The notes: generated by a model not told the origin, from the letters alone. A stretch of 60,113 bases of DNA from a virus (IMGVR_UViG_3300042466_000580:1-60113), one strand, 5' to 3'; shown: positions 13,534-59,322, counted from the stretch's first letter. Program-made: numbers and translations.

Positions 13534-13547
13534 TATTTATGTCCCGG
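13534..13547 (-). promoter_or_regulatory. Candidate late-promoter motif CGGGACATAARTA, copy 1
   Basis: Same motif at 28338-28351 and 59304-59316, each just upstream of a minus-strand gene start. Confidence 0.55.
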
Positions 13548-13565
13548 CCAGACAAAACTGAACCG

Positions 13566-25577: not shown

Positions 25578-26924
25578 TTACTTAGAGAGTAATCCGCCAA
25601 GCCAGTTGCCAGCCTTGGTTACATTGGTCTGGGGACGTACTATCTGGCCGTTGATGTTCTCTAGCTGCTTGATTGATTGCTGGCGACCGGCCTCTTCTGT
25701 GTGCTGGTCGGCCTGCCACTGAGAGTTACTGCGAGGGTCGTTCGTCATCAACTCAGCCCCTAGCTCGACTAAGTTAGTTGCATCCCCCGCCTCGTCTGTG
25801 AGGTGAGCGGTAGCGCGACCTCTCCACGTTGGCCTAGCAGTAAGATTCTTGGTGATCTCGTTTGCAGTGCTGCGAGCAAAGCGAGACACCCCAGGAACTC
25901 CCGCCTTTGCAACACCAGTGGCCACGCCACGAACCGCAGTGGGAACAGCCTTCATGGAGCCCACCGCGCCCGTCCCGTCGAGCATCCCGTTGCCAAAGCT
26001 AAGGGCTGCGTTGACTACGGGCTGGGCGTAACCCAACTGGCCGTTCATATGCTCTGGGAGAATGTGGTTGCCTATCGACCGGAACGTGTCTCCTGCGGTC
26101 ATTCCCTCAGAAGCGGCATGTGCATCTCGGCCTTGCTGGATCAAAGCGTCGTTTGCCCGCCAGCCATTGTCCGCTGCCAAGGCCGGATTCGTGCGGTGGA
26201 AGTCAGAACCCTGAGAGCGGACGGCGGCATCACCAATCGCCGTCATTGGATCGGTCTGTACCCCGTTTGCTTTCCTAAGAAGGGCAGTCCCGATGAGACT
26301 CGCCCCATCCGAAACAGCCCCACCCATCTTGGTAGTGAAGCTGCCGACAAAGTTCTCGGGATTCAATATCTCCCCAATCCCACCCTCGGGGATGCCAGGG
26401 AACATCGTGCCGGGGCCGGAACCAGGGAGGTAGGCGTATTTCCTATCAAGCTGTTGAGCGTAGAGCTTGGCGGCACCATCCCTCTGGCTTGAACCTGTGT
26501 CCGCGCTCCCTGCCCAGGCGGATGGCCCCGGCATCCCGAACCAACCCTGGTCGGTTGACTTGGGCTCCTGGGGATCGAATGCCTCATAAAGCCGCTTCCG
26601 GCTATCAAGCTGGTCGAGATACTGACCACCGGGGGAGAGTTCGTAGGAGCCGGGAGTCCTTCCCTTGAGTTGGTCCGGTGTCCACCCCTTGCCTGTGTAC
26701 CCACTGAGCATCTGGTCTTGAAGGGCCCGCTCTTCGTCATTCTGCGGCTGGTAGCTGGGGTGGCCAATCGCCATGTTGCGGCGGAATCTCTCCATTGCAG
26801 GCGTGGATTTGCCAGCCATGTGGGCAGCCGCCATAGCCTTTGCATTGAACCTAAGCTGCTGCTCCTGGGGAAGGCGGGCAATATCCGCCTCGTAAGCGTG
26901 AATGAGTGCTTCTTCAGGTGTCAT
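25578..26924 (-). CDS. Hypothetical virion/ejection-like protein
   Basis: 448 aa, Gly/Ala-rich. Confidence 0.65.
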   Translation of the reverse strand: MTPEEALIHAYEADIARLPQEQQLRFNAKAMAAAHMAGKSTPAMERFRRNMAIGHPSYQPQNDEERALQDQMLSGYTGKGWTPDQLKGRTPGSYELSPGGQYLDQLDSRKRLYEAFDPQEPKSTDQGWFGMPGPSAWAGSADTGSSQRDGAAKLYAQQLDRKYAYLPGSGPGTMFPGIPEGGIGEILNPENFVGSFTTKMGGAVSDGASLIGTALLRKANGVQTDPMTAIGDAAVRSQGSDFHRTNPALAADNGWRANDALIQQGRDAHAASEGMTAGDTFRSIGNHILPEHMNGQLGYAQPVVNAALSFGNGMLDGTGAVGSMKAVPTAVRGVATGVAKAGVPGVSRFARSTANEITKNLTARPTWRGRATAHLTDEAGDATNLVELGAELMTNDPRSNSQWQADQHTEEAGRQQSIKQLENINGQIVRPQTNVTKAGNWLGGLLSK

Positions 26925-28180
26925 GCGAGTAATGCCGTCCGTAGGCTGGGATTGGTGGAGCTAGTCTTGAAGTTCATGTTTGTCTCAAAGTCATTCGCCC
27001 CGTCCGGCCCGTGGGCCTTCATGATTTGCTGCAAAGTCTCAATCTGCTTCTCAAGACCATGAGCGGGGGAGCCGTAATTGGGGTGGCCTTCAAGATTGAT
27101 GATCGGATCACGCCCAGTCATCTTGTAGTTGCGGATGTAATCCAGCACGTTGTCGAGCGTGGCCTGGGTGGCACCAACATCCCGCATCCCCGGCTGAACG
27201 GTTTCGATGAGCCGCTTCGTGTGGAACAGGAGATTCCCCATCTCCAGCCCATTGCTAGATAAATACTGAGCCTCGGGAGTGGTCAGAAGAGAACGGTTGA
27301 TGTCACCAATCGCGGGCCGCTCTAAGGGGTTTCCCCGCAATCTCGGGCCACTCTGCCGCAGGATGTAATCAAAGCTGGGCACAGAGTGATGGAGGACACC
27401 GTGCCCACCTCCTTCATGCTGTCCTACGTTGATTCCCCTGGTGACAGGCTGAAACTTCCCAGCCGCCATCTGATCGCCGCTGCGATTCAGGAAGATGGAC
27501 TGGGTTGCCATGTCCGCAAACCCTTGGGAAGTAGACTCGTCAAACCCATCCTTCTGGCCCCGATAAACCATCCACGGGCGATTCATTTGCTCTTGGATGT
27601 CATCTAGGTGGTATATCTCCGCATTCCCCATGCCGTGAGGGAGGTTGCGGTCAACAAGCCTGCCTACGATGCGGTCTGAATGGGGTCGATTGCCGGTGAG
27701 TCCATCCAGCATCCTCCAAGGAGTTGTCCGCGTAACGGCAACATCCTCAGAGAAACCCATAGCTCCATCAGCAAAGTCTGGCTTCTTGGAGGTATGGATC
27801 GTTCCCGGGTAGGTGTAAGTCGGGGAATCACCAGTGAGGGTGTCCCGAAACATATTCGTTCTCTTGCCTTCAGCCTTAATGGCCTCAAAGAGAGCGTTGT
27901 TGGTTACGGTCGAGGCATCTGGATCGCCCGTGGCGGCAATGGCTTCACGGGCAACCGACATGGGAGCCAAGTCCCCACCAGTCGTGTAGTTCCGGTCATC
28001 CAGCCGCTCCTCGACAACCTTCTCCGCTGCCGACATGGGGCGGGGGTTCTCAATAGCATAATCGTCAATCAGCTTGGCGTTCTGGTAGTTCTTCAGCCGC
28101 AGATCGTTCGCCTCTGGTATGGAGAGGACACGGGCGGGGGCCTGCAAGACTTTCCGAATGTTGTCTACGTTGCGGCCCAT
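26921..28180 (-). CDS. Hypothetical protein
   Basis: 419-aa ORF; GGAGG RBS; coupled to the next gene. Confidence 0.7.
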   Translation of the reverse strand: MGRNVDNIRKVLQAPARVLSIPEANDLRLKNYQNAKLIDDYAIENPRPMSAAEKVVEERLDDRNYTTGGDLAPMSVAREAIAATGDPDASTVTNNALFEAIKAEGKRTNMFRDTLTGDSPTYTYPGTIHTSKKPDFADGAMGFSEDVAVTRTTPWRMLDGLTGNRPHSDRIVGRLVDRNLPHGMGNAEIYHLDDIQEQMNRPWMVYRGQKDGFDESTSQGFADMATQSIFLNRSGDQMAAGKFQPVTRGINVGQHEGGGHGVLHHSVPSFDYILRQSGPRLRGNPLERPAIGDINRSLLTTPEAQYLSSNGLEMGNLLFHTKRLIETVQPGMRDVGATQATLDNVLDYIRNYKMTGRDPIINLEGHPNYGSPAHGLEKQIETLQQIMKAHGPDGANDFETNMNFKTSSTNPSLRTALLA

Positions 28181-29920: not shown

Positions 29921-30028
29921 GCGCGGTGCTTTCCTGGGCTTGCCCGTGCGGTTCCTCATGGGCCTGTGCGGTGTCTTCCCCGGTTGGGTGTGCGGTGTCT
30001 TTCGTGCCCTCTCGCGTGCGCTGTCTTC
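29921..30028 (+). repeat. Five degenerate direct repeats, consensus GTGCGGTGTCTT
   Basis: Copies start at 29921, 29946, 29966, 29990 and 30016. Confidence 0.6.
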
Positions 30029-30044
30029 GTGTGTGTGTGCGCCT

Positions 30045-30079
30045 GGAATCTCCGGAGGAGATTTCGCCCTGTTGGTTGG
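30045..30079 (+). repeat. CGGAG-hairpin + CCCTGTTGG element, copy 1
   Basis: GGAATCTC-CGGAG-GAGATTTC-GCCCTGTTGGTTGG. Confidence 0.85.
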
Positions 30080-30134
30080 TGTCGGCAATCGACCACTCCG
30101 GTCGGTGCGGCAACCACAATCGGGGAGCGATGCA

Positions 30135-30479
30135 ATGCGGATCATTGAGCAACGGCTATGCGATGCGGTGAGAGCGGGGCGACCATTTCGGTCTGGCAAC
30201 ACTGTGGCCCGGGTCATGGTGACGGGTGGCTTTCGGGTGGAACTGCACGGGAATGCGATTGCTTGGGCGGCGGGGCGAAAGCCTGACGGGACGTTCCACG
30301 GTGTGACCATCGACCACTGTGGGTGGAAGACTGCGACCACCAAAAGCCGGATCAATGCCCTTCTGAGCGGCATCGGCATCAACAAGCGGGTCTATCAACG
30401 CGACGGGGCTTGGTTCATTTCCGACTTCGGCCTGCGGGGGCATTCGGACACTCCATTCGACCGCTATCACACGCTGTAG
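30135..30479 (+). CDS. Early hypothetical protein
   Basis: MRIIEQRL...ELHGNAIA...CGWKTATTKSRINALL; GGAG RBS. Confidence 0.8.
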   Translation: MRIIEQRLCDAVRAGRPFRSGNTVARVMVTGGFRVELHGNAIAWAAGRKPDGTFHGVTIDHCGWKTATTKSRINALLSGIGINKRVYQRDGAWFISDFGLRGHSDTPFDRYHTL

Positions 30480-30491
30480 TCACGCCCGCCT

Positions 30492-30524
30492 ACTCCACGG
30501 AGTGGAGTTCGCCCTGTTGGTTGG
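30492..30524 (+). repeat. CGGAG-hairpin element, copy 2
   Basis: ACTCCA-CGGAG-TGGAGT-TCGCCCTGTTGGTTGG. Confidence 0.85.
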
Positions 30525-30559
30525 CATCACCCCGAATTGGCCGATGGGGTTACTCGGCT

Positions 30560-30602
30560 CCCCCGGTGGATCACGTTGATTCACCGGGGGTTTTCTTTTC
30601 TT
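30560..30602 (+). terminator. Intrinsic terminator
   Basis: CCCCCGGTGGATC/GATTCACCGGGGG stem followed by TTTTCTTTTCTT. Confidence 0.75.
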
Positions 30603-30620
30603 CACGCAAAGGGATCACGC

Positions 30621-30860
30621 ATGTACCACGACATCATCACTGACGATCAGGACATCATCGGCACGGTCGAAATCTTCAAGTTCGACGGTGTGCGGGTTTG
30701 CGAGGGCGATTGCTGGGCTGACGAAGACGGCGAAACCCTCCCCGCCGGTTGGTACTGGTGGACCTGCGTCCCCGGTTGCCTGCCCGATTCTGACCCATTC
30801 GGCCCCTTCGCCACGAAGACGAAAGCAATGGACGCCGCGGAGCGTTCCTATCTGGACTGA
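30621..30860 (+). CDS. Early hypothetical protein
   Basis: 'GWYWWTCVPGCLPDSDPFGPF'; RBS present. Confidence 0.75.
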   Translation: MYHDIITDDQDIIGTVEIFKFDGVRVCEGDCWADEDGETLPAGWYWWTCVPGCLPDSDPFGPFATKTKAMDAAERSYLD

Positions 30861-30869
30861 CGCCCGCAT

Positions 30870-30903
30870 GACTCTCCGGAGGAGAGTTCACCCTGTTGGA
30901 TGG
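30870..30903 (+). repeat. CGGAG-hairpin element, copy 3
   Basis: GACTCTC-CGGAG-GAGAGTT-CACCCTGTTGGATGG. Confidence 0.85.
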
Positions 30904-30905
30904 TG

Positions 30906-30954
30906 GCGGTTGGCTGACGGAAGCCTTTCCCCGGTTCGACTCCGGGGCACCGCA
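30906..30954 (+). ncRNA. tRNA-like element lacking an anticodon arm
   Basis: GCGGT/ACCGC closing stem; GGCT-GACGGA-AGCC arm; CCCCGG-TTCGACT-CCGGGG T-arm. Confidence 0.55.
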
Positions 30955-30991
30955 CTGGTTACGGGTTCGATTACACACTGAGGGCACCATC

Positions 30992-31297
30992 ATGGGCAAA
31001 ATCACGCTTGATACCGACGTTTGCGGCGGGGCTTACTGCCTCATCGTCAATGACGATGGTTCGGACATTCTCATTCAGTCCGATTGGGACTTGCCAGGGG
31101 TTGCTTCCACGTTTGGGTGGAGCGTTCGGGATGTGAAAACGCCGGGACGGGACTGCGACCACCACGGGACTGACGGCACGGTGGATTGCCCAGAGTGCGG
31201 GCTGAAAGCCGGGACATTCATCAGCGAAGCTGGCGACTGGATCAACAGTAACGACGGTGCGTCCGTTGATGACCCGGGCTATTTCGATGGCGAGTAA
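30992..31297 (+). CDS. Early hypothetical protein (Cys/His motif)
   Basis: MGKITLD...CDHHGTDGTVDCPECG. Confidence 0.75.
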   Translation: MGKITLDTDVCGGAYCLIVNDDGSDILIQSDWDLPGVASTFGWSVRDVKTPGRDCDHHGTDGTVDCPECGLKAGTFISEAGDWINSNDGASVDDPGYFDGE

Positions 31298-31300
31298 CCA

Positions 31301-31353
31301 AGCCGAAACCGGGGAAACCCGGTCTGTCCGTAATGCGGGCACTGAAGATGGCT
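31301..31353 (+). ncRNA. Hammerhead ribozyme, type II (extra U after A9)
   Basis: AGCC-GAAA-CCGGG(GAAA)CCCGG-TC^-TGTCCG(TAATG)CGGGCA-CTGAAGA-T-GGCT; predicted cleavage after C31324. Confidence 0.85.
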
Positions 31354-31376
31354 ACACACACACAAGGGGTATCACA

Positions 31377-31784
31377 ATGGCTGAAACGCTGACGATTGGC
31401 GACGTTACCATCACGGTCTGCGGGCAGGATCGGGATTACGAGGGCCGCACTTGCTACGAGGTGTCGATTGCCTTCCCAGAGGGCTATTCCTACACCGACA
31501 AGCAGGGGGAAACGCAGTTTATCGACCGGGGTTTTATTCACCGGGAACGTGACCTGCGATCTGGCTGCCAAGGCGGGACTGAGCGGGAGGGGATGGAAAG
31601 CCTGCTTTCCTTCCTGACGGCGGCGGCGGAAGCCTACCGCTACACCATGCGGACGGGCCGCGAGAGCGACAACAGCGACCTTTTCCCGGCCTTCATCGTG
31701 GAATGGGCACACCAAAACGACAGCGAAATTCAGTCTGTCCAGTGCATGTACGAGTTCGACCGCTCGGGTGAAAGCCTCGCGTAA
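31377..31784 (+). CDS. Early hypothetical protein
   Basis: MAETLTIGD...; AAGGGG RBS. Confidence 0.75.
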   Translation: MAETLTIGDVTITVCGQDRDYEGRTCYEVSIAFPEGYSYTDKQGETQFIDRGFIHRERDLRSGCQGGTEREGMESLLSFLTAAAEAYRYTMRTGRESDNSDLFPAFIVEWAHQNDSEIQSVQCMYEFDRSGESLA

Positions 31785-31815
31785 TCAACGGAGTTGATTT
31801 CACCCTGTTGGATGG
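31783..31815 (+). repeat. CGGAG-hairpin element, copy 4
   Basis: AATCAA-CGGAG-TTGATT-TCACCCTGTTGGATGG. Confidence 0.85.
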
Positions 31816-31816
31816 C

Positions 31817-31863
31817 AGCGACGTTGGTTGACCGCAAAGTGGGTTCGATTCCCACTTGTCGCT
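31817..31863 (+). ncRNA. tRNA-like element lacking an anticodon arm
   Basis: 7-bp AGCGACG/TGTCGCT acceptor-like stem; short TTG..CAA arm; AGTGGG-TTCGATT-CCCACT T-arm. Confidence 0.6.
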
Positions 31864-31897
31864 CTGGTTCGATTGTTCACACCCTTGGAGAGCGACC

Positions 31898-32278
31898 ATG
31901 ACAAAGCGAGAAGAAATCGACGCGGTGAAAGCGTTCGTTGCCAGCCTGCCCCGGGATTCCTATGCCCGGGATGCACTGGAGCCGTTCCTGATGGAGTTTG
32001 AGAAGGGTGTCTATGCGGACTACGTTCCGACCGTTCACGACTCATGGCGGCACCGCCGGGAGGCTGACGAGGAAGCCGGTCAAGCGAGGAAGGTGCTGGC
32101 TGCGGTCAAGGAAGAAATCAAGCAGGCCAAAGCACGACTGCGTAATTGCTGCGTCGGCATGGGCACCCTGCTCGACCGGGCGAAGCAACTTCAGCACTCC
32201 ATCGACAACACGGCGGAAACCCTGAAGGGGCTGCACGGTGCGGCGGATGCACTCAACGAACGGATCGCCAGCATATAG
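31898..32278 (+). CDS. Early coiled-coil hypothetical protein
   Basis: MTKREEIDAV...; GGAG RBS. Confidence 0.75.
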   Translation: MTKREEIDAVKAFVASLPRDSYARDALEPFLMEFEKGVYADYVPTVHDSWRHRREADEEAGQARKVLAAVKEEIKQAKARLRNCCVGMGTLLDRAKQLQHSIDNTAETLKGLHGAADALNERIASI

Positions 32279-32327
32279 CGAAACCGGGGAAACCCGGTCT
32301 GTGGGTGTGACCCACACTGATGAGCTA
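32276..32327 (+). ncRNA. Hammerhead ribozyme, type II (canonical core)
   Basis: TAGC-GAAA-CCGGG(GAAA)CCCGG-TC^-TGTGGG(TGTGA)CCCACA-CTGATGA-GCTA; predicted cleavage after C32299. Confidence 0.92.
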
Positions 32328-32345
32328 CACACAAAAGGATCAACC

Positions 32346-32738
32346 ATGAAATTCGACCGGAAATTCGCCCAGTTTGTATGCGTTGGGGACACGATCAAGG
32401 CAGACGTTACTGACAAGTTGCAACTCGTTGCCACTCTCGTCTTCGACAGCGACTGCGACCCGCAAAACGAGGGCTGGTATGACGAGCCAGACGTTGAGCG
32501 GTGGAAGAATGACGAGTGGCATTTCGTGGGGGTTGTGTTGTCCGTTCAATCGCACGACGGCACGATCAAGAGGAACCTCGGCTCCCTCTGGGGAAACGAG
32601 GCCAACCTCAGGGACAATAACGACCACCTGACAGACGTTGCCAATGAGTTGATTGACGAGCGGGAAATCGTGGCCGCACTGCGGGAGATTTACGAGCCCG
32701 TAACCCGGGCGATTAAGACTCTCACACACACAGCCTAA
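32346..32738 (+). CDS. Early acidic hypothetical protein
   Basis: MKFDRKF...WKNDEWHFVGVVL...SLWG; AAGGA RBS. Confidence 0.75.
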   Translation: MKFDRKFAQFVCVGDTIKADVTDKLQLVATLVFDSDCDPQNEGWYDEPDVERWKNDEWHFVGVVLSVQSHDGTIKRNLGSLWGNEANLRDNNDHLTDVANELIDEREIVAALREIYEPVTRAIKTLTHTA

Positions 32739-32765
32739 CGGAGTTAGGCACGACCCTCTGGTTGG
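32733..32765 (+). repeat. CGGAG-hairpin element, copy 5 (variant)
   Basis: GCCTAA-CGGAG-TTAGGC-ACGACCCTCTGGTTGG. Confidence 0.75.
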
Positions 32766-32781
32766 TATCGGTTGGATGACG

Positions 32782-32813
32782 GCCCCGGCAATTTCGCCGG
32801 GGCTTTTCTTTTT
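32782..32813 (+). terminator. Intrinsic terminator
   Basis: GCCCCGGC-AATTTC-GCCGGGGC followed by TTTTCTTTTT. Confidence 0.8.
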
Positions 32814-32826
32814 CACGGGGCACACC

Positions 32827-33105
32827 ATGCAAACGCAATGGGAATGGACACGGGTCAACAACGACACGAACGGCAATGGCCGGTTCGTCTGCCACTTCCT
32901 GCCACTGGTGCGGGACATGGCTGGCAAGGGATGGGGCACCAACAGCTTGTACAAGCTGGCCTGCAAGCGGGCCAACAAGCTGGGCGGTCGCAAGTACCAC
33001 ACGAAATCGTTCGGTGGTGGGGTGGTTTTCCAAGCGTATTCCAGCACGTTGCCGGACTTGGAGCGACGGATTCTTGAACTGCAAACCGAAGGGGGTGACG
33101 CATGA
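32827..33105 (+). CDS. Early hypothetical phage protein
   Basis: 'RVNNDTNGNGRFVCHFL...GGRKYHTKSFGGGVVFQ'. Confidence 0.75.
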   Translation: MQTQWEWTRVNNDTNGNGRFVCHFLPLVRDMAGKGWGTNSLYKLACKRANKLGGRKYHTKSFGGGVVFQAYSSTLPDLERRILELQTEGGDA

Positions 33106-33608
33106 GCAGCATGGCATATGACGAACTGACCGAAATCGCCGGGGAGTATGGGCTGACACTCACGTTTGAGTTCATGCCACAGGTCTTCCCCGAAGACACC
33201 AAGTCCACGGACATGAGCATGAAATGGCTGGTGACTGTGCGGCATCGGGGCAACCCGTTGCTGGCCACCACCTACACCCAAGGGGTGGCTCACTGCCCGT
33301 CCTATTCGGGCGTCAAGTGGGGACGGGGCCTGACCGTTGCCCAGCTTGAGAACCTGCGGCGTGACTGTGCCAGCCCGCAGCCCAAGGGTGGGCCGAAGGA
33401 ACCGCTGACCGCTCTGTGGTGCATCGCTTCCGACTGCCAGACGGTGATGGACGGTGGATCGTTTGAGGGATGGGCCCGTGAGCTTGGCTATGACACGGAC
33501 TCCCGCAAGGCGGAAGGCATCTATGACGAGTGCGTTCGCCAGTACCTGAAGCTGAAGCAGGCCATCGGTGACGAGGGCATCCTGACTCTGGCTGCGGTCG
33601 AACTGTGA
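33102..33608 (+). CDS. Early hypothetical protein
   Basis: 'SFEGWARELGYDTDSRKAE.IY..C'; ATGA overlap. Confidence 0.8.
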   Translation: MSSMAYDELTEIAGEYGLTLTFEFMPQVFPEDTKSTDMSMKWLVTVRHRGNPLLATTYTQGVAHCPSYSGVKWGRGLTVAQLENLRRDCASPQPKGGPKEPLTALWCIASDCQTVMDGGSFEGWARELGYDTDSRKAEGIYDECVRQYLKLKQAIGDEGILTLAAVEL

Positions 33609-33690
33609 CGGCACCCTGCCACCCCCTCTGTTCAGAGCAGAGGGGAGAGTTGGGGATCGTTTGAGTTACACACACGAAAGGAAACGCACG

Positions 33691-33870
33691 ATGATTCTCG
33701 GGAAAAGCAGTGAACTGCGGAACTACAGGGGCTTTGTTTATGACGGCGGGCACGGCGGGCCGTATTGGATTGTCGGCTGCTTGTCGGCGGGCACGTTCAG
33801 CAACCTCGCTGACCTTCGCCGGTACGTTGACGAGAACCTTTGGGTCTGCCCAAGAAATGCTGGCGGCTGA
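33691..33870 (+). CDS. Small early protein
   Basis: AAGGA RBS; MILGKSSE... Confidence 0.6.
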   Translation: MILGKSSELRNYRGFVYDGGHGGPYWIVGCLSAGTFSNLADLRRYVDENLWVCPRNAGG

Positions 33871-33905
33871 CTGAACACACATCCCATTACACGACGAGGT
33901 GACGA

Positions 33906-34124
33906 ATGACCCTGAAAACGACGGTCGAACTGACGAGGGGTGAGCTTGGCATCCTTGCCGCTGCCACCCTTGGCGAGTGGACAGAGGCGGATAGGTTGCG
34001 GATAGATGGCAACCGCGACGGTTGGTATGACAAGAAAGCGAAGGAGCGGGTGGAAGTCCACCTGTACGAGACTGACAAGCTGTTCAACAAACTTAGGAAC
34101 CTAATCAAGGAGATGGACGCATGA
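33906..34124 (+). CDS. Small early protein
   Basis: GAGGTG RBS; 72 aa. Confidence 0.7.
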   Translation: MTLKTTVELTRGELGILAAATLGEWTEADRLRIDGNRDGWYDKKAKERVEVHLYETDKLFNKLRNLIKEMDA

Positions 34125-34405
34125 GCAAGCACACACCGGGACCGTGGGATACTGGGGCGGGCGACATGACTGTTCGCCTCAACCGTCTGGCCGATGAGAT
34201 TGCCAATCGGTTTGGCGACCACTCTGACCGTCAGGTCGAGGGCAATGCTGCCCTGCTCTTGGCTGCCCCCGAGCTACTGGCTGCGCTGAAGGAGGTGGCA
34301 GAAGGTTGTGAGTCCAGACTGCGAAAGGGCAAGGACAGCGGCGATCTGGAAACGCTGCGTCTGTGCCGTGCCGCAATCAACAAGGCAGAAGGGAGGGGTG
34401 AGTGA
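34121..34405 (+). CDS. Phage protein of the 'HTPGPW...NA.L.AAAPELL' type
   Basis: Motifs at both ends are typical of a widespread phage hypothetical family. Confidence 0.8.
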   Translation: MSKHTPGPWDTGAGDMTVRLNRLADEIANRFGDHSDRQVEGNAALLLAAPELLAALKEVAEGCESRLRKGKDSGDLETLRLCRAAINKAEGRGE

Positions 34406-34475
34406 GCGACAACCTATGGGCCTTGCTAGTGGCGGGCCTGATGGTGCTGCACCTCATGTGTAGTGAGTGACACAC

Positions 34476-34509
34476 GACTGTTCGGAGAACAGTTCACCCT
34501 GTTGGTTGG
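34476..34509 (+). repeat. CGGAG-hairpin element, copy 6
   Basis: GACTGTT-CGGAG-AACAGTT-CACCCTGTTGGTTGG. Confidence 0.85.
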
Positions 34510-34515
34510 TATCGA

Positions 34516-34548
34516 CCCTCGGCAATTCCGCCGGGGGTTTTTCTTTTT
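34516..34548 (+). terminator. Intrinsic terminator
   Basis: CCCTCGGC-AATTCC-GCCGGGGG followed by TTTTTCTTTTT. Confidence 0.8.
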
Positions 34549-34565
34549 CACAAAGGAACTTTGAC

Positions 34566-34979
34566 ATGGCGACGAGCGACATCATTGCGGCGATGGCAGC
34601 GGGCACCACGGCGACGGCAACCAAGACGGTGGGCAAGGGTAAGCGGGCGGTCGAGGTGACCATCACCCGTACTGCCCCGGCGGTGGTGGTGGTGGACGAG
34701 ACTGTGACCGACGAGCCGGTCAGCTACACCGGCAAGCTGCCAGTGGATGAGGGCAAGGTGGTAACCGAAATCCTCCCCGGCTTGTCTCTTGTCCGGTACT
34801 CGCGTGGCTACACGGCACTGCGGGTGAAGGGCAAGGCATGGGGTGGTAACAAGGTGACGATTGGCAGGCCGCTCTGGCGGGAAGACTTGCTCGCCCTTGG
34901 CCGTGCCCTCCTGGCGGATGCAGAGGGAGCCCTGTCCTACGATGAGGCCCACGGCAAAGAAGAAGTTGTGCCGTTCTGA
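34566..34979 (+). CDS. Hypothetical protein
   Basis: MATSDII...; AAGGA RBS; acidic C-terminus ending PF. Confidence 0.75.
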   Translation: MATSDIIAAMAAGTTATATKTVGKGKRAVEVTITRTAPAVVVVDETVTDEPVSYTGKLPVDEGKVVTEILPGLSLVRYSRGYTALRVKGKAWGGNKVTIGRPLWREDLLALGRALLADAEGALSYDEAHGKEEVVPF

Positions 34980-35003
34980 ACACATACCACAAGGAGATTC
35001 GAC

Positions 35004-35495
35004 ATGGCAGCGTTAGACCCAAGGCCGGTGAAGGAAAGGATTCTGTCCAGCATCTCCAAGCCTGACGGGGAGGGCGGGTGCTGGGTTTGGCAGGGAGTAA
35101 CACTTCCCCGTGGGTACGGTCAGATCAGCGTCCACTCTCAAAGGCATTACGCCCATCGACTGTCTTACGAGACTTTTGTTGGGCCTATCCCTGACGGCTT
35201 GGACATCATGCACCTGTGCGACAACCCGTCTTGCGTCAACCCGGCTCATCTGACACCGGGTACACGCAAGAGAAACATGAATGACGCATCTTTGAAGGGA
35301 CGAGTCCCGCATGGGGAGAGGCACTGGGGTGCAAAGCTGACAGAAGACAAAGCGCGTGAGTTGATTGCGGTCAGGGATCGGGACGGTCTGTCTTACAGAA
35401 ATCTGGCCAAGCTGTTTGGCATCAGCACGATGCAGGCTTGCCGGATATGCACGGGAAAGAGGTGGGCTGGTCTTTCAAGAAAGGAGGACGAGTAA
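35004..35495 (+). CDS. HNH homing endonuclease
   Basis: 'CWVWQG...GYGQI...AHRLSY...MHLCDNPSCVNPAHL..GT...N' plus HTH. Confidence 0.9.
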   Translation: MAALDPRPVKERILSSISKPDGEGGCWVWQGVTLPRGYGQISVHSQRHYAHRLSYETFVGPIPDGLDIMHLCDNPSCVNPAHLTPGTRKRNMNDASLKGRVPHGERHWGAKLTEDKARELIAVRDRDGLSYRNLAKLFGISTMQACRICTGKRWAGLSRKEDE

Positions 35496-35704
35496 TGATC
35501 CGATTCGATTCCCCCATCCTCACCGCATCACAAGCGGCGAAGGTGGCGGGCTGTTCGGACAACTACATGCGGCGGTTGCTGGATGGCGGCAAGGCCACCG
35601 GGTACTACACCGGAACGGTCTGGCTGATGGAACTGAACGAGGCACTGAGGGTTCGCGGTGAACTTACGGTGCGGTCAATAGGCAAACGAAAGGCAGGCAA
35701 GTGA
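35495..35704 (+). CDS. Excisionase-like helix-turn-helix protein
   Basis: 'ILTASQAAKVAGCSDNYMRRLLDGG...G.VWL'. Confidence 0.7.
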   Translation: MIRFDSPILTASQAAKVAGCSDNYMRRLLDGGKATGYYTGTVWLMELNEALRVRGELTVRSIGKRKAGK

Positions 35705-36048
35705 TGAACGATAGATACAGGATGTGTCACATGACGCCGAAGGTAAGCGTGGAGTTGGAGTCCGGGGACACAGCGGAGCTTACGCTCGGTGACTGCATGA
35801 GGGTGATAAACCAACTCATGCACCACAAGTTCCTACAGTTTGACGTTGACCTGCCGCGAACGCTGATGGGCAGGGATATTGCAGAGTGGGAACAGGTCGG
35901 TGTTCACGGGACTGGTGAGTCTTGCTGGCAGTACGAGGACGATCTCGACAACCTGACCATCACTCTCCAGCTTGACGAGATCACTGCGATTGGTGGCCTG
36001 CCCCGGGAGGAGTTCCGTAACATCCCTAAAGAGAAGGAGGTGGAGTGA
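35701..36048 (+). CDS. Hypothetical protein
   Basis: Coupled ORF, 115 aa. Confidence 0.65.
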   Translation: MMNDRYRMCHMTPKVSVELESGDTAELTLGDCMRVINQLMHHKFLQFDVDLPRTLMGRDIAEWEQVGVHGTGESCWQYEDDLDNLTITLQLDEITAIGGLPREEFRNIPKEKEVE

Positions 36049-36368
36049 TGGCAAAGAAGCCAAGCCGGGGCCGTGAGTACAAGGCGCAGCGTGAGTTCCT
36101 CATGCTGCAAGTACAGCGGGCTTTGATCCGGGGAATCTTGCGGCTGCATGACAAGGGCTGGACCCCCGACGAGATCGCAGCTTCGGTCGATGTGATGATG
36201 AAGGCCATCGGTGACACGATGGTCAAAGACCTTGCAACCAACGGGGAGATTGACCCCAAGACCTACGAGTTCACGATCCGCAGCGTGGAGTCGGTGATCA
36301 GCGCGGACAAGTATGCGGAAACCGTGGCCGATTGCTTTGAGGAAATGAAACGAAAGGAAGGTAAGTGA
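36045..36368 (+). CDS. Hypothetical protein
   Basis: Coupled ORF, 107 aa. Confidence 0.65.
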   Translation: MMAKKPSRGREYKAQREFLMLQVQRALIRGILRLHDKGWTPDEIAASVDVMMKAIGDTMVKDLATNGEIDPKTYEFTIRSVESVISADKYAETVADCFEEMKRKEGK

Positions 36369-36685
36369 TGAGAACGACGATGACTCTGGTGCTGGCACTG
36401 GTAGCTGGCACAGCGTTCGGTCAGTACCCCTATGCCATACCACCGGCATGGGGATACATGAATAAGAACGAGGCCATGAGGCAGCAACAGTTTGAGAATC
36501 AGCGGTGGCAACGTGAGCAGCGGGAGAAGGAAGCGAACTACCTATGGGGCGGCGACCCTATGGAGTACGCAGAGCGAGGTGCCCGCATTCGGATGATGAA
36601 GGAACAGACCCGGACCCTGCGGTTGCAGAATGACTACCGCGAGAAGACGGGGAACTTCCTCATCGACAACAATCCGTTCAGGTAG
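36365..36685 (+). CDS. Secreted hypothetical protein
   Basis: Signal peptide MRTTMTLVLALVAGTAFG. Confidence 0.65.
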   Translation: MMRTTMTLVLALVAGTAFGQYPYAIPPAWGYMNKNEAMRQQQFENQRWQREQREKEANYLWGGDPMEYAERGARIRMMKEQTRTLRLQNDYREKTGNFLIDNNPFR

Positions 36686-36714
36686 TTGACGTATACGCTT
36701 GTATACTGTATCGT
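36686..36714 (+). promoter_or_regulatory. Sigma70-like promoter TTGACG-N17-TATCGT
   Basis: Intergenic, near-consensus; predicted start falls just before hairpin copy 7. Confidence 0.55.
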
Positions 36715-36725
36715 GTGTGTGCGTT

Positions 36726-36756
36726 ACTGTTCGGAGAACAGTTCGCCCTGTTGGTT
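36726..36756 (+). repeat. CGGAG-hairpin element, copy 7
   Basis: ACTGTT-CGGAG-AACAGT-TCGCCCTGTTGGTT. Confidence 0.85.
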
Positions 36757-36775
36757 AGTAGCAACGATGGACTTG

Positions 36776-36813
36776 GCCCCGGCAGCACTTCGCTGTCCGG
36801 GGCTTTTTGTTTT
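36776..36813 (+). terminator. Intrinsic terminator
   Basis: GCCCCGGCAGC/GCTGTCCGGGGC stem followed by TTTTTGTTTT. Confidence 0.75.
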
Positions 36814-36833
36814 CACACCCAAAGGAATTGACC

Positions 36834-37703
36834 ATGACCCCTCTGAATAGTTCGATTGTCGAGCGTGTCCGTAACTTCTTTCCCGATGTGACCAAGCAGT
36901 CGCTGTTCTCCCCGGACATGCGGCCCACTCCCCACTGTGGCCTGTTCAGAAATGACACGGGAGCTTGCTTCGGTCCTGCGGTCAGTGCCAACTACGAGCT
37001 TCACACCACCGATGACATCTGTGCCTTGGTGGAAGCGAGCGAGCCGGTGCTGGGTGAGTGCGGCGACGTTCAGTTGGGCTTCCGAGATGGACACTATGTC
37101 TCCATCCAGCCCACCAAGGAGCATCTGTTTACCGTTCACAAGAACGACACGGTGTTCCCCCGGCTGATCGTGACGGCCCGCTATGGCGAGGCTTTCACTG
37201 CCACCATCGGGTTGTTCCGGGTGGTGTGCGGCAACCTCGCCATCTTCCAGAAGGTGGCGGGAACCTCGGTGCGGATCAGGCACACCTACTCCCTCCGCTC
37301 CAAGATGGAAGACCTCATCGAAGACTTCCACTCGCTGCGGAATGGGGTGGGCAACCTTGAGGTGGCGATCAAGGAGATGGCTGACCGCAAGGTGCGGCTG
37401 GCTGATTTCCTCGACGGCATCTACGGCACCCCGCTTGAGAGTGCAACGGAGCGGTCGATCACCATGCACCGCAACCGCACTGAGCAGATCGTGCGGCGGC
37501 TGATGCGTGAGCAGGTTGCATTGGGTGAGCCCACTGCAATCAACGAGGTCAGTGCATGGGCCGCGTTCAATGCGGTACAGGGATTCATCCAGCATGACTC
37601 CCGCCGCAAGGGCAAGCCGGGTGATTTCGACCGGGCAATCATGGCTCTGTCGGACGCGAAGGTTCTTCAGGCCCAGCACTTGGCCATGACGATGGCGGTC
37701 TAG
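36834..37703 (+). CDS. DUF932 family protein
   Basis: 'GLFRVVCGN...VRIRHT' and 'SAWAAFNAVQGFIQH' motifs. Confidence 0.85.
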   Translation: MTPLNSSIVERVRNFFPDVTKQSLFSPDMRPTPHCGLFRNDTGACFGPAVSANYELHTTDDICALVEASEPVLGECGDVQLGFRDGHYVSIQPTKEHLFTVHKNDTVFPRLIVTARYGEAFTATIGLFRVVCGNLAIFQKVAGTSVRIRHTYSLRSKMEDLIEDFHSLRNGVGNLEVAIKEMADRKVRLADFLDGIYGTPLESATERSITMHRNRTEQIVRRLMREQVALGEPTAINEVSAWAAFNAVQGFIQHDSRRKGKPGDFDRAIMALSDAKVLQAQHLAMTMAV

Positions 37704-38702: not shown

Positions 38703-38933
38703 ATGACCACCGTAACCCTGACTGAGCGGCAGGAAGAAATCCTGCGGTACATTGCCAGCCACATTGACATCAATGGGTTTCAACCCAGCTTCAGAGAGAT
38801 GATGGCACGGTTCAAGATCAGGAGCCCCAACGGAATCAAGGGGCACCTTCAAGCACTGGAACGTAAGGGAATCATTGCGTCGAATTACCAAACCTCACGG
38901 GCAATTTCATTTAACTGGAAGGAGTGGCTGTAA
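38703..38933 (+). CDS. LexA-type DNA-binding-domain-only protein
   Basis: 'LTERQEEILRYI...GFQPSFRE....F.I.SPNG...HLQALERKG.I......SRAI'; no peptidase domain. Confidence 0.9.
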   Translation: MTTVTLTERQEEILRYIASHIDINGFQPSFREMMARFKIRSPNGIKGHLQALERKGIIASNYQTSRAISFNWKEWL

Positions 38934-39802
38934 TGCCCACATGCTTTCTTTATTCCAGGGTGTCAACAGAAGATCAAAATTTGTCGCCCGCTTGGCAAGC
39001 CGAAGTCTGCAAGAACCACTACGAGTTCAGCCTAAAGTCAAAGGGGTACGCACTGCACCCCGAAGTCTTTCATGACCACGGCGTGTCGGCCTATCATGTT
39101 GACTGGCGTGACAGGCCGCGAGCCCGTGAGATGTTCAACCTCGTCAAACCGGGTGACATCATCGTGGTGGCAAAGCAAGATCGTGCCTTCCGATCCAGCC
39201 GAGACAGAGAAAATACTTTCTACTTTCTCAACAAGGTTGGCATCGACATCGTGATACTTGATGCGATGCTCGACACTAGCACTGCCGCCGGGAAGTTTGC
39301 TGCGTCCGTGATAGCAGCGCAGTGCCAGTTTGAGTCTGACGTTAAGAGCGAAAGACAGAAGGCAGCCCACTCCATCCGGCGGCAGCGGAAGACACCGATG
39401 AAAAAGTTGCCACCCCCAGGCTGGAAGCTGGACAAGATGATTGACGAGCTAGTCCCTGACTGGGATGAGCGGCGGCTGATGGCCACGGTCTATGACCAGC
39501 GTGACAAGGGCTATCGCTCGGTGGCGGAAGCGGTGCGGGTACTCAAGGCGGCGGGCACACTGCGGGCCAATGGCTGCAAGTACACGCAGTCATGGTTCAC
39601 CAGGGCCTACTCTGTCTTCCTGAGGAACTTCCCTTGCGAAGGCTACCAATGCCACTGCCGGTCGGAGCATAAGGCAAAGGCTCACATGAAGGTGGGCAAG
39701 CTCGTCAAGAAACGGAAGGACCGGATTGCAAAGCTAGTCCGGCCTCACGACGTAGCTTCCCCAGCTTCGCAGCAAGTAGCTTCGCAGCCTGCCGGGTACT
39801 GA
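38933..39802 (+). CDS. Serine recombinase (resolvase/invertase catalytic domain with C-terminal extension)
   Basis: YSRVST catalytic motif; 'DRAFRS'; 'LDTSTAAGK'; 'PPPGWK'. Confidence 0.9.
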   Translation: MPTCFLYSRVSTEDQNLSPAWQAEVCKNHYEFSLKSKGYALHPEVFHDHGVSAYHVDWRDRPRAREMFNLVKPGDIIVVAKQDRAFRSSRDRENTFYFLNKVGIDIVILDAMLDTSTAAGKFAASVIAAQCQFESDVKSERQKAAHSIRRQRKTPMKKLPPPGWKLDKMIDELVPDWDERRLMATVYDQRDKGYRSVAEAVRVLKAAGTLRANGCKYTQSWFTRAYSVFLRNFPCEGYQCHCRSEHKAKAHMKVGKLVKKRKDRIAKLVRPHDVASPASQQVASQPAGY

Positions 39803-40244
39803 TCCCCTTGGACTTGGCCATCTTGCGGATACTAACCCCCTCTATCACGCTCTCTGTGATCCACTCCCTGTCCTCGCTGGGCAGGGAGTGGAGGGCGGTC
39901 AGTATCTCGCTGGTGATGGGGTCATCTTCCAGCCTCTCGGGTGGCAGCCTTCTTTCAATGGCTGTTATCTGAATTCTGAATGCACTTCCGTTGCGACTAC
40001 GGATTTCTGTGCGGCACGACTTGAGAAGTTCGTGCATGATCGCCCGACTGAAGTAAGCCTTCGGGTCCCGGGCGGGATCGAACGTGCGGGCTGCCATCAC
40101 ACACGCCAGCCTAGCCGCCGACTCCAAATCCTCCCTGTCTACCACCTCTCTAAGACACGGGTAGTTCCCCATGAAGTAGTGCAGGCACGGGGCCACAAAC
40201 TCCAGGGCCCTCTCGGCCATAGCTTGCTGGTCTGGGGTGAGCAT
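39705..40244 (-). CDS. Sigma-70 family RNA polymerase sigma factor (regions 2 and 4)
   Basis: 'EDLESAARLACVMAARTFDP...AYF' region 2; 'ALHSLPSEDRE...EGVSIRKMAKSKGIS' region 4. Confidence 0.8.
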   Translation of the reverse strand: MLTPDQQAMAERALEFVAPCLHYFMGNYPCLREVVDREDLESAARLACVMAARTFDPARDPKAYFSRAIMHELLKSCRTEIRSRNGSAFRIQITAIERRLPPERLEDDPITSEILTALHSLPSEDREWITESVIEGVSIRKMAKSKGISTRQAAKLLAAKLGKLRREAGLALQSGPSVS

Positions 40245-40382
40245 AGTCACAGGCGCGCATGGGTTGCCTCCCGATACGTCCGGCTGCAATGCGATTCATA
40301 GCATTCCCGGCACCGGACATCTTCACTCGGCATACCGTATGGGTCAACATTGACGGTGGCCTTTTTGCCACAGTCAACGCAC

Positions 40383-40727
40383 TCACCAGGGGACTCGGGA
40401 TGGCTTGTTTCTTCGCTTGCCATGCGCGTACTCCTCTATCTTTTTACGGGCCACTTCGGGGGAAACCTGCAACAGTTCGCAGCAATCTTCCATAGTCACT
40501 ATCCCCACCCCACCCTTTAGCCACCGCTCGGCGGCAGCCCAGTCATCCCGCTGCTGCATGGCCCAGGAGCGGCAGGCAAAAGCCTCCACTCCCCGGGCCT
40601 GCCGGAATAGGTTGCGACTCTCGGCTATCTTCTGGGCGGCATCATGCAGGAGCCCCACGCACAGTAACCTCCAGCCCCCTTGCAGGGTCAGGTTGTCGAG
40701 GTGCCGTGTCTCTATGTCGCCAGTCAT
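40383..40727 (-). CDS. Hypothetical protein
   Basis: 114 aa, coupled ORF. Confidence 0.7.
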   Translation of the reverse strand: MTGDIETRHLDNLTLQGGWRLLCVGLLHDAAQKIAESRNLFRQARGVEAFACRSWAMQQRDDWAAAERWLKGGVGIVTMEDCCELLQVSPEVARKKIEEYAHGKRRNKPSRVPW

Positions 40728-41254
40728 TTCTTGGCCTCCGTATCTATCGCCATCAGGAGGTTCGCTGCGGCGTGACCCAGGTGATCCTCTGACTGGTCGC
40801 CAGCCAGGAAGCTGAAGATGTGGGCCAACGCATGGTTCAGTATGTCGTTGACCGGGAACCCACGCTCCCAGTTATTGAGCCCGTACTTCTCCGCACCCTC
40901 TGCCATCGTCAGGGCGACTCGCTTGAGCCCGATGAGGGGGACGAGATCGTACCGCTCGGTGAGGTGTGATCGCCGCGCCCCGGTGTCATAGAGCTTGAAA
41001 GCATCGACACCAGCCGGGGAAGGTCGGTCAACCTCAGTGTGATCAGCCAGTCTGTCCGTTTCTTCTTGTGGCAGACCACGGCTAACTTGCTCATACCAGC
41101 TTCTTGCACGGCTCGCTCCATCGTTGGGTGGATCGATAAGGCTTCCACCATCTTGCTCTCCACATGGAGAAGCGGAACCTCCGCTATCACCAAGTCCGCT
41201 GCCCCCCCCTCCACACAACCGTTGAACTGCTGTGACCGCCTCGCTGATTCCCAT
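40724..41254 (-). CDS. dATP/dGTP diphosphohydrolase-like (DUF5664) protein; start uncertain
   Basis: 'RYDLVP...VALTMAEGAEKYGLNNWERG...NHALAH...EDHLGHAAAN'. Confidence 0.8.
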   Translation of the reverse strand: MGISEAVTAVQRLCGGGGSGLGDSGGSASPCGEQDGGSLIDPPNDGASRARSWYEQVSRGLPQEETDRLADHTEVDRPSPAGVDAFKLYDTGARRSHLTERYDLVPLIGLKRVALTMAEGAEKYGLNNWERGFPVNDILNHALAHIFSFLAGDQSEDHLGHAAANLLMAIDTEAKK

Positions 41255-41334: not shown

Positions 41335-41575
41335 CCTCCTTCTCTCGCTTGGCCATTGCCTTCTTTAACCAAGCTGGCAGCTTTGGTTTGTGCCCCAGGA
41401 ACAAGTACCTGTGCTGCACCCGGAGAGTCCCTTGAGTTACCGGACGAAGAACGTGTTGGTAGGTGTAACGCTTGCCCTCAACGTCATAGGTCAGGTAGTC
41501 AACAAGGTCATCCTCTTGCAGCTTCTCTGCCCGCCCGCAAAGCGGACCACCAACGTAGACAACCCTGCGTTTCAT
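41315..41575 (-). CDS. Hypothetical protein
   Basis: 'VGGPLCG' motif; coupled ORF. Confidence 0.65.
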   Translation of the reverse strand: MKRRVVYVGGPLCGRAEKLQEDDLVDYLTYDVEGKRYTYQHVLRPVTQGTLRVQHRYLFLGHKPKLPAWLKKAMAKREKEGGHAGE

Positions 41576-41886
41576 GTATCACCTTCCTTCACAAACACCC
41601 CCTCTTTGGTGAGCGTTCCCTTCCGATCCTTGATCTGTTCGTAAGCCGCAGCCAAACACAACGGCAGTGTTACGCCCGTCAACTTGCAGTAGATGATGAG
41701 CGTTACCACAACGTCACCAACCCCGTCAACCATCCCGGCACTGTCATTCTTCAATGTGGCATCGGCCAGTTCACCTAGCTCCGACATGGTCTTCATAAGC
41801 TGGGCCATAGGTGTGGAGTTGGGGATGATCTGCCTGTCCTTCGCCCACTGTTCCACCAGTTCAATCAGGTAATCCGTAGACTTCAT
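41572..41886 (-). CDS. MazG-like nucleotide pyrophosphohydrolase
   Basis: 'QWAKDR...QLMKTMSELGELA...DGVGDVVVTLII...AYEQIKDRKG'. Confidence 0.9.
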   Translation of the reverse strand: MKSTDYLIELVEQWAKDRQIIPNSTPMAQLMKTMSELGELADATLKNDSAGMVDGVGDVVVTLIIYCKLTGVTLPLCLAAAYEQIKDRKGTLTKEGVFVKEGDT

Positions 41887-42041
41887 GCCTATCTCCTTTC
41901 GATTCGGTACTCGGGACATCCACAGACAACACAGGGCTGGTTGTTTTCTTTGACGGCGTTGCACCGATTGCAGAAGCGAGTGCATCCGCCACGATCCTTC
42001 TCATTGCATTCCGGCAGCGGCAGCAGCAGTTGTCTTGGCAT

Positions 42042-59316: not shown

Positions 59317-59322
59317 CTCGCG

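Follow-up and report, generated by a model that had tools for sequence, protein, structure and literature searches.

What is the role of a small hairpin that recurs in front of the early genes of an uncultured freshwater virus? The question is raised by the IMG/VR virus record IMGVR_UViG_3300042466_000580, the whole of which, 60,113 bases with a CheckV completeness of 100% and a G+C content of 58%, was analysed and is here called the window. Within positions 30,045 to 36,813 seven copies of a 33-nt element are present, each consisting of a hairpin with a 7-bp stem and a GGA triloop, followed by a 16-nt tail, and the stem covaries strongly among the copies in the window and in related phages. 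We tentatively favour the reading that the element, built on an extrudable DNA hairpin, serves the early gene cassettes as a structure-dependent, orientation-specific signal for the start or entry of transcription, while granting that this may well be wrong.

Seven copies of a hairpin with a conserved tail

C-GGA-G sites with a closing stem of 5 bp or more were sought on both strands of the window. Exactly seven matches were obtained, all on the + strand (30047-36742) and all with a perfect 7-bp stem around the GGA triloop, in agreement with an earlier inspection of the DNA made without any searches (the sequence-only reading), which had noticed seven intergenic copies. That inspection had described an invariant CGGAG loop on a stem of 6-8 bp. 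Since CGGAG is made up of the C:G closing pair and the GGA triloop, every stem in the window is 7 bp long; the loop is indeed invariant within this genome, but relatives have GAA, rarely AAA or TAAC, and also other closing pairs. Some of the start positions given earlier were off by 1-2 nt and others were right.

The tail, defined as the 16 nt 3' of each hairpin (NNR...CYSTGGWTGG), reads TC-R-CCCTGTTGG-WTRG in six copies and ACGACCCTCTGGTTGG in copy 5, which had already been singled out as a variant. Counted from the first base after the hairpin, the distance to the next start codon is 71-112 nt for the copies in the window.

Copy 1 (30047-30079; hairpin AATCTCC-GGA-GGAGATT at 30047-30063, tail TCGCCCTGTTGGTTGG) heads the + strand operon from within the divergent control region, with 71 nt separating it from the ATG at 30135. 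Copy 2 (30492-30524; hairpin ACTCCAC-GGA-GTGGAGT at 30492-30508) is followed by a stem and a terminator (30560-30590), while copy 3 (30871-30903; hairpin ACTCTCC-GGA-GGAGAGT at 30871-30887) and copy 4 (31783-31815; hairpin AATCAAC-GGA-GTTGATT at 31783-31799) are each followed by a tRNA-like module (about 30904-30954 and about 31817-31863, respectively). In copy 4 the stop codon TAA of the upstream gene overlaps the 5' arm, and in copy 5 (32733-32765; hairpin GCCTAAC-GGA-GTTAGGC at 32733-32749) the upstream TAA lies inside it; the terminator after copy 5 is at 32781-32804. Copy 6 (34477-34509; hairpin ACTGTTC-GGA-GAACAGT at 34477-34493) precedes a terminator at 34514-34539. Copy 7 (36726-36758; hairpin 36726-36742, tail TCGCCCTGTTGGTTAG) has the same stem as copy 6, so that there are six distinct stems in the seven copies, and it is followed by a terminator at 36775-36803 and a DUF932 gene (36834-37703). 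The second modules thus are as they had first been described, a terminator in four copies, a tRNA-like element in two and another stem in one.

The window contains 11 perfect palindromes with arms of 7 bp or more around a 3-nt spacer, where about 3.7 are expected (60113/4^7); the elements account for seven of them and stem I of a hammerhead ribozyme for one. The exact hairpin-plus-tail pattern gave six forward matches, none in reverse and none with a reversed-pattern control, and the variant pattern of copy 5 gave one match in the window and none in 100 shuffles. It is only this exact form, joined to a hairpin, that is enriched: with one mismatch allowed, the 9-mer CCCTGTTGG was found 27 times, against 25.6 expected. 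A covariance model of the element matched the seven copies in the window and nothing else there.

Covariation of the stem and conserved positions

The alignment comprised 39 distinct copies from 12 loci (the window and pieces of about ten related phage records), with 273 stem cells. Pairing is kept in 98.5% of the cells and double changes occur at all seven pairs, in 110 cells; as many rows of the alignment are positional homologues, these counts include inherited changes. When the partner columns were slid by 1-3 positions pairing dropped to 30-49%, and RNAalifold independently predicted the same helix. The stem is 7 bp long in 35 of the 39 copies and 6 bp long in the other four, all of its columns vary freely, and 26 distinct 5' arms are found. 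The claim that the stems change in sequence while pairing is kept, originally made for the window, consequently holds with the relatives included.

Since the copies had first been chosen by their hairpin, ascertainment by the tail only was used as a control. Upstream of tails collected in this way a perfect 7-bp hairpin was present in 6/7 (record G000) and 8/8 (G001) cases for tail type A, and in 5/6 (G007) and 6/6 (G008) cases for tail type B, the single type B exception being a G-T pair.

Two loop positions, G13 and A15, are invariant (39/39), the base between them is G in 28 copies and A in 11, and 36 of 39 closing pairs are C:G. In the tail the third position, at 11 nt from the loop centre, holds G in 33 copies and A in five; further along, T-G-G at tail positions 10-12 is kept in 37 of 39, and the TT after it in 34-36. 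G-U pairs are nearly absent from the element, with one in 273 stem cells as compared with 18 in 183 for the RNAfold stems of the terminator-bearing leaders 3' of the elements (Fisher p = 5e-7; 15 leaders, some of which are not unique). The near-lack of G-U pairs, taken together with the conserved loop and closing positions, is a DNA-like signature and suggests that the element may act as DNA. GNA triloops form unusually stable mini-hairpins in DNA. Nearest-neighbour folding with DNA parameters did not separate the two strands.

Downstream of 13 of 37 hairpins a GGTTGG-N-GGTTGG pattern is present, versus 5-7% of background windows. A G-quadruplex was considered as a core feature of the element and rejected, since the pattern, enriched as it is, is present after only these 13 hairpins. 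The sequence GGTTGG-N4-GGTTGG at 32756-32771, and the homologous sites in G007 and G008, resemble the two-tetrad quadruplex of the thrombin aptamer.

Relatives, tail types and gene replacement

Relatives were brought in by pattern and protein searches, and copy numbers were taken from scans of whole records, which revealed eight copies in G001, four in G006, seven in G007 and seven in G008, a partial record. All relatives in which the element was seen have a head protein of at least about 72% identity, and it was not found in seven loci from metagenome-assembled genomes (MAGs). Among at least 119 matches to the loop-plus-tail pattern in a scan of metagenome loci, the 119 listed include three with 7/7 pairs and 116 with five pairs or fewer.

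Tails are uniform within a genome (TCRCCCTGTTGG in the window and G001, YTGAGCCTCTGG in G007 and G008, CAGCCCAGTTGR in G006) and differ between phages that are 92-98% identical in their structural proteins. In the window only copy 5 has a foreign tail type, the one common in G007 and G008, and it does so together with its upstream gene. By analogy, such tail types may be compared to the promoter types of phages with a transcription specificity of their own.

Another intergenic motif, CCCCTTCGG(G/C)G with a G-rich box, stands at comparable places before early genes of two more distant relatives, on the - strand of the loci L137 (about 3420-3580) and L144 (about 1190-2980). It was not counted as a member of the family; pairing is kept in L144, as a C-TTCG-G hairpin, and not in L137.

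Every copy is intergenic and co-oriented with its flanking genes. This includes a late-operon copy in several relatives, which is on the opposite strand from the early copies and sits 5' of an HNH gene, in the order TerS-element-HNH-TerL in G001 and TerL-element-HNH in L126. The stems of these two late copies differ and their tails are of the resident type. Both HNH insertion sites have a copy on the 5' side, from which it follows that the element moves together with its downstream gene. The flank 5' of the hairpin is not conserved except for S at -4 and -2, and no conserved promoter hexamers precede the internal copies.

Between the window and G001 gene-sized replacements are found, with breaks in homology at about 30977/31292, 31921/32327 and 32816/33605, all at or beside intergenic modules. 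These breaks bear on an early suggestion that the copies are recombination anchors. Such anchors would be conserved intergenic cassettes serving mainly to promote gene shuffling, as PeSLs or attC sites do. The modules are indeed freely recombined, an element or a hammerhead being followed by a tRNA-like module, a terminator or no further module, and a gene for a serine recombinase is present at 38924-39802. Hypervariable stems would however reduce homology between copies, strict pairing and a GNA loop are needless for homologous exchange, and a serine recombinase needs conserved duplex half-sites, which variable arms cannot supply. Pfam scans revealed neither a tyrosine integrase nor an HUH enzyme, and no hairpin-specific recombinase was found. 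That the replacements end at intergenic modules stands, but it looks like a consequence, and an anchoring role is improbable.

Modules adjoining the element

Between the element and the Shine-Dalgarno (SD) sequence there is always another module. An intrinsic terminator with a 14-bp stem and a T-run (30560-30602, + strand) follows copy 2, and similar terminators (32781-32815, 34514-34550 and 36775-36813, + strand) follow copies 5, 6 and 7. These four are all of the strong sense terminators in the early region of the window, and each is found 10-45 nt after a copy and ahead of a gene. Most copies in the relatives have no terminator next to them, the tRNA-like module being the commonest partner. 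In the window the tRNA-like modules are located at 30904-30954, with the T-arm CCCCGGTTCGACTCCGGGG, and at 31817-31863 (both on the + strand). They combine a T-arm of the form GGTTCGAnTCC with an acceptor-like stem and have no anticodon arm, and ARAGORN calls neither of them. Such modules are often followed by a lone GTTCGATT motif.

Type II hammerheads were identified at 31301-31360 and 32276-32333 (+ strand), in intergenic gaps of the early operon that have no element, as well as in three relatives (L105 5053-5112; L107 4714-4772, 8614-8674 and about 3964-4024; L108 5386-5444). With 27.5/30.8 bits for the pair in the window and 27.5-32.3 bits overall they score just below the Rfam gathering score of 37, and their cores are intact (CUGA-N-GA, GAAA, GUC). 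ACACAC-SD-ATG lies directly 3' of five of six hammerheads, and, judged from this arrangement, cleavage of the polycistronic early RNA would occur just before the ACACAC-SD-ATG of the next gene. A hammerhead creates a new RNA 5' end. In G007 a hammerhead precedes a leader homologous to the one after copy 2 (stem, terminator, CTTCACGC-AAGG), and thus element and hammerhead are interchangeable upstream modules.

Two further features of the region between 30 and 37 kb were observed. A (C)ACACAC motif is found directly 5' of the SD sequence at nearly every early gene, and alternating purine-pyrimidine runs (GTGTGTGCG or CACACACA) precede many of the hairpins.

A sigma70-like promoter, TTGACG-17-TATCGT (36686-36714, + strand), ends 11 nt before the hairpin of copy 7 and is the only such site in 11.5 kb. 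The promoter had been pointed out by the sequence-only reading, and it is conserved in the relatives, as TTGACR-17-TAnnnT in G001, G006 and G007 and, by eye, in G008.

The modules just described suggest a different explanation, in which the element would work in cis as part of the leader RNA, either as a nut/put-like or pause signal that takes polymerase past terminators, or as a determinant of RNA-end processing or stability. The element is co-oriented with transcription, and all four strong sense terminators come shortly after a copy. Copy 7 lies a few nt past the predicted start of a conserved sigma70 promoter and before a terminator, which is a pR'-6S-tR'-like layout, RNA-level modules such as hammerheads and tRNA-like elements abound in the operon, and the phage seems to rely on the host RNA polymerase (RNAP). 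A hairpin followed by a conserved linear box also recalls the boxB-boxA order of rrn, and the T-G-G of the tail, 10-12 nt past the stem, has the spacing of hairpin-stabilised pauses.

Several observations count against an RNA role. G-U pairs are all but missing from the element, compared with about 10% in neighbouring RNA stems, and a DNA mini-hairpin has the same conserved positions in loop and closing pair. Most copies in the relatives precede a tRNA-like module, where cleavage would sever a nut-like RNA from the polymerase. The hammerhead of G007 replaces the element in front of the same terminator-bearing leader, so that this terminator does not depend on the element. The upstream stop codon is inside the 5' arm, or no more than 13 nt away from it, in at least four of the five internal copies, so a terminating ribosome would cover the hairpin. 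Moreover, the genomes have non-homologous genes in first place after copy 1, so there is no conserved N-like gene at that place, and no antisense partner of the tail was found in the phage genomes at up to two mismatches. Antitermination, as first proposed for this locus, thus gains from the four terminators and loses from the many copies without one and from the swap in G007. We regard a leader RNA element, the main rival of the reading that we favour, as possible, albeit doubtful.

A family of small RNAs of about 70-110 nt, composed of hairpin, tail as seed and terminator, had also been put forward. Copies 2, 5, 6 and 7 do have the order hairpin-tail-terminator, and copy 7 has a promoter of its own, which means that the proposal could hold for the terminator-bearing copies only. 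Three of the seven copies in the window, and most of those in the relatives, have no terminator, the SD sequence of the next gene starts about 10 nt past the T-run, and the phage genomes contain no complementary target of the tail. Small RNAs are accordingly very improbable.

The element as a possible DNA signal for transcription

The start-signal reading that we tentatively favour can be laid out in steps. A small DNA hairpin, with its 7-bp Watson-Crick stem, G-R-A triloop and C:G closing pair, would extrude from supercoiled DNA. Transcription would start, or a polymerase would be loaded or re-set, at the conserved purine in third place of the tail, at 11 nt from the centre of the loop, and the nascent RNA would pass through the leader module (tRNA-like, attenuator-terminator or stem) into the gene. 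Because the GNA hairpin, unlike that of phage N4, is on the non-template strand, the polymerase would be either the host RNAP together with a phage factor or an unrecognised phage enzyme. The terminators may stop unmodified host polymerase that arrives from upstream, whereas a polymerase started or re-set at the element would pass them, in which case the promoter and antitermination readings converge.

The sequences themselves show the hairpin with its covariation and conserved positions, its orientation and location, and the exchange of modules; action as DNA and a role in starting or re-setting transcription are what we infer from them. A start signal would account for the DNA-type conservation, for the fixed purine, and for the position of the element at the head of an operon and of a mobile gene. 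It would likewise account for the exchange with a ribozyme that makes 5' ends and for the genome-specific tails. The pairing with tRNA-like modules fits as well, since a promoter before a tRNA-like unit is natural.

Five points weigh against a start signal, and the first four are left unexplained by it. No RNA polymerase, sigma factor or primase was found with Pfam on 60 open reading frames (ORFs) and PHROGs on 20. The GNA loop of the element is on the coding strand and that of N4 on the template strand, and we know of no promoter with coding-strand GNA polarity. Strong terminators follow four of the seven copies, which is odd for a promoter. A conserved sigma70-type promoter has its predicted start about 4-10 nt ahead of copy 7, the layout to be expected for a leader RNA element. 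Finally, two copies in the more distant relative L142 have the family tail together with AAA and TAAC loops, and the GNA loop is thereby preferred and not obligatory.

The polarity of the hairpin can also be taken at face value. With the GNA hairpin of the + strand serving as template, as in N4, transcription would run leftward, antisense to the early genes and into the - strand structural operon that begins at about 29757. A stable GNA hairpin is indeed present on the strand used by the N4 virion RNA polymerase (vRNAP), copy 1 points at the structural operon, and 17 of 35 copies have a C 11 nt to the left of the loop centre, N4 needing a C at +1. It is however the right-hand tail that is conserved, the left flank being otherwise unconserved, and no vRNAP was found by tblastn or phmmer. 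In addition, transcription from the late-operon copy would be antisense to TerS or TerL, although this copy moves along with the HNH gene on its 3' side. Leftward promoters of this kind are scarcely to be expected.

A mirror-image promoter class is conceivable too, in which a GNA hairpin on the non-template strand would hold the template strand open while the host RNAP, or an unrecognised phage enzyme, starts at a fixed purine 11 nt away. We consider it rather unlikely. If it were true, supercoil-extruded hairpins of N4 type would be used outside Schitoviridae, by a phage without a virion polymerase.

A DNA hairpin could, furthermore, serve replication. A stable DNA hairpin with a CTG-containing box on its 3' side resembles the start sites of primases, and the copies might be priming signals, such as G4-type ssi sites, on the lagging-strand template; if the origin were in the divergent region, that template would hold all copies, the one in the late operon included. 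Against this, the copies are limited to a 7-kb stretch and one mobile gene and always keep to intergenic sites, a set distance away from start codons, and tail type C has no CTG. We hold priming sites to be the least probable of the explanations weighed here.

If the element starts or re-sets transcription, structure-dependent promoters would be wider spread and more varied than thought, and this can be tested with a 33-nt element. If it instead works as RNA, it would be a new leader motif in a modular, 'punctuated' early operon of hammerheads, tRNA-like modules and attenuators. With either reading, the motif is clean and covaries strongly, and a large group of uncharacterised phages can be annotated with it.

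Search for a polymerase or trans factor

The vRNAP and RNAPII of N4 were used as tblastn and phmmer queries and gave only noise, albeit a very divergent enzyme could escape such a search. A DxDGD motif was not found in any long ORF, and sequence searches of the PDB made in the hunt for a polymerase were empty. Two large proteins were looked at more closely by their ESM Atlas neighbours. One, of 1212 residues, resembles polyvalent LPD-type virion proteins, and the other, of 925 residues, is of low complexity and has no neighbours.

The clades of a 419-residue protein (26921-28180, - strand) follow the tail types exactly, with 97% identity within a type and 40-47% between types. The protein has the invariant residues H255, E256, H260 and E313 (HE..H plus E) and is zinc-metallopeptidase-like, and only 20 clusters match it among 1.84 billion representatives. 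It was rejected as trans factor, the HE..H plus E pattern making a linked metallopeptidase more likely. A 113-residue neighbour, which does not follow the tail types, and the 925-residue protein, which follows them partly but is of low complexity, were also discarded. Two further uncharacterised proteins, of 137 residues (39888-40301) and 157 residues (44508-44981), likewise follow the tail type.

Gene content, habitat and host

The genome is arranged in three blocks. A - strand block from about 29.7 kb down to position 1 includes the tail fibres, portal, TerL and major head protein. The + strand block at 30.0-40.4 kb holds many small genes, among them Kyano_Gp96-like, TreK-like, HNH, DUF932, LexA-DNA-binding-domain and serine recombinase genes, and a second - strand block, from 60.1 to 40.4 kb, encodes a helicase, Erf, a PDDEXK exonuclease, MazG/MazZ-like proteins and large virion-type proteins. 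Among GenBank phages the region has no blastn match, the major capsid protein has no match, and TerL has only remote ones, at no more than 27% identity. The major head protein has 1079 metagenome relatives. All 24 of the 24 sequencing runs that hold 30000-37000 are DNA runs from lake or fresh water.

Relatives of the head protein at 47-74% identity (L200-L206) are on contigs that were binned into MAGs of Planctomycetota (four), Crocinitomicaceae (one contig, in two copies) and Peribacteria. As the bins come from several phyla, they are only a weak hint of the host.

At the end of the + strand operon a 76-residue protein with only a LexA DNA-binding domain (38703-38933, +) overlaps the start of the 292-residue serine recombinase (38924-39802, +), a pair which suggests a temperate or invertible-segment lifestyle. 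The N-terminal domain of a MazZ-like dATP/dGTP diphosphohydrolase (E = 8e-16) and a weak MazG-like protein are encoded at 40724-41254 (-) and 41572-41985 (-). Genes of the MazG/MazZ type accompany DNA-base modification in some phages, and modified bases would alter the stability of a DNA hairpin. The sequence TATTTATGTCCCG...CAAACTGAA.CGCTACTT is present in two copies between - strand genes (13534-13571 and 59304-59341), its - strand reading ending in CATAAATA; this repeat is a candidate signal for the other gene class.

Comparison with known systems

Rfam 15 gave no match at the gathering score in the whole window, and at E values up to 10 only noise over the elements, so the first impression that the element belongs to no named family is borne out for Rfam 15. 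Full-text searches of the literature, which were aimed at N4-type promoters and PeSLs in main texts and were not exhaustive, revealed no description of such an element. The element is not an intrinsic terminator, as the tail TCRCCCTG has no T-run and a terminator scan calls only the hairpins downstream. A likeness of the tail to the 3' region of 16S rRNA and to the class II signal of T7 was considered and set aside.

The attC sites of integrons are similar to the element in that structure prevails over sequence, in their strand specificity, in their location between co-oriented cassettes and in the DNA-like pairing signature. They are however long imperfect hairpins with extrahelical bases, located 3' of the cassette and used by the tyrosine recombinase IntI, and nothing of this is found here. 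The nut sites of phage lambda and the rrn leaders share with the element a purine-rich loop on a free stem and an adjoining conserved linear box, and they too lie in leaders. Copies 2, 5, 6 and 7 (4/7) are placed before a terminator, copy 7 also after a promoter; this is not so for copies 1, 3 and 4 or for most copies in the relatives, and in front of one such terminator a hammerhead takes the place of the element. The loop of the element is a 3-nt triloop with a covarying closing pair, and not a GNRA-like pentaloop. There are 4-8 copies per genome compared with two, most of them have no terminator, G-U pairs are almost lacking, and there is no conserved N-like gene.

The PeSLs (promoter-early stem-loops) of T4-type phages consist of a terminator stem-loop with a sigma70 early promoter behind it. 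As far as excerpts of a study on them go (PMC4122927), the two systems have in common that repeated composite intergenic cassettes flank small, variable early genes at the boundaries of indels and replacements. The element differs in having no conserved hexamers upstream or at a fixed distance downstream, the one sigma70-like site being upstream of copy 7. Its stem is hypervariable and the terminator, when present, is downstream.

To our knowledge, DNA-hairpin promoters are known only from N4-like phages, where they are read by a dedicated injected polymerase. In the N4 sequence P1 is GTTGC-GAA-GCAAC and P2 is AAGAAGC-GGA-GCTTCTT, and both are on the - strand, which is the template of the + strand early genes. 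A hairpin promoter had been among the suggestions of the sequence-only reading, and it is the best anatomical fit, the conserved positions being the reported determinants of extrusion in N4. What does not fit is the GNA on the coding strand, and the caveat on polarity that had been attached to the suggestion was right. Excerpts of a review on N4 (PMC4496689) state that extrusion and stability of the hairpin need the C:G closing pair and a loop with G at its 5' and A at its 3' end, a central purine being required for recognition. For LUZ7, excerpts of another study (PMC9163698) report nine early transcription start sites, most of them with hairpins, and G starts 13-14 nt from the hairpin centre.

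Within the limits of these excerpts, the element resembles the N4 and LUZ7 promoters in its 5-7-bp free stem, 3-nt G-R-A loop and C:G closing pair, and in occurring in several copies before small early genes. The putative purine start 11 nt from the loop centre is at the -11/+1 distance of N4, compared with 13-14 nt in LUZ7. The resemblance to N4 is in mirror image, with a 7-bp stem, a 2-nt spacer, the purine 11 nt from the loop centre and C on the template. The element has no conserved -8G, and it has a 16-nt conserved downstream box where N4 has none. The phage itself differs too, in that no vRNAP or RNAPII gene was found, a serine recombinase is present, and TerL and the major capsid protein are unrelated to those of Schitoviridae. 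As the element fails the defining test of each group, we have not filed it as a member of the N4/LUZ7, nut/rrn or PeSL groups. What it has in common with N4 is the physical device and its conserved positions. The uncultured freshwater phages in which this device occurs form an unrelated clade, their genomes have 4-8 copies each, and the strand is the opposite one.

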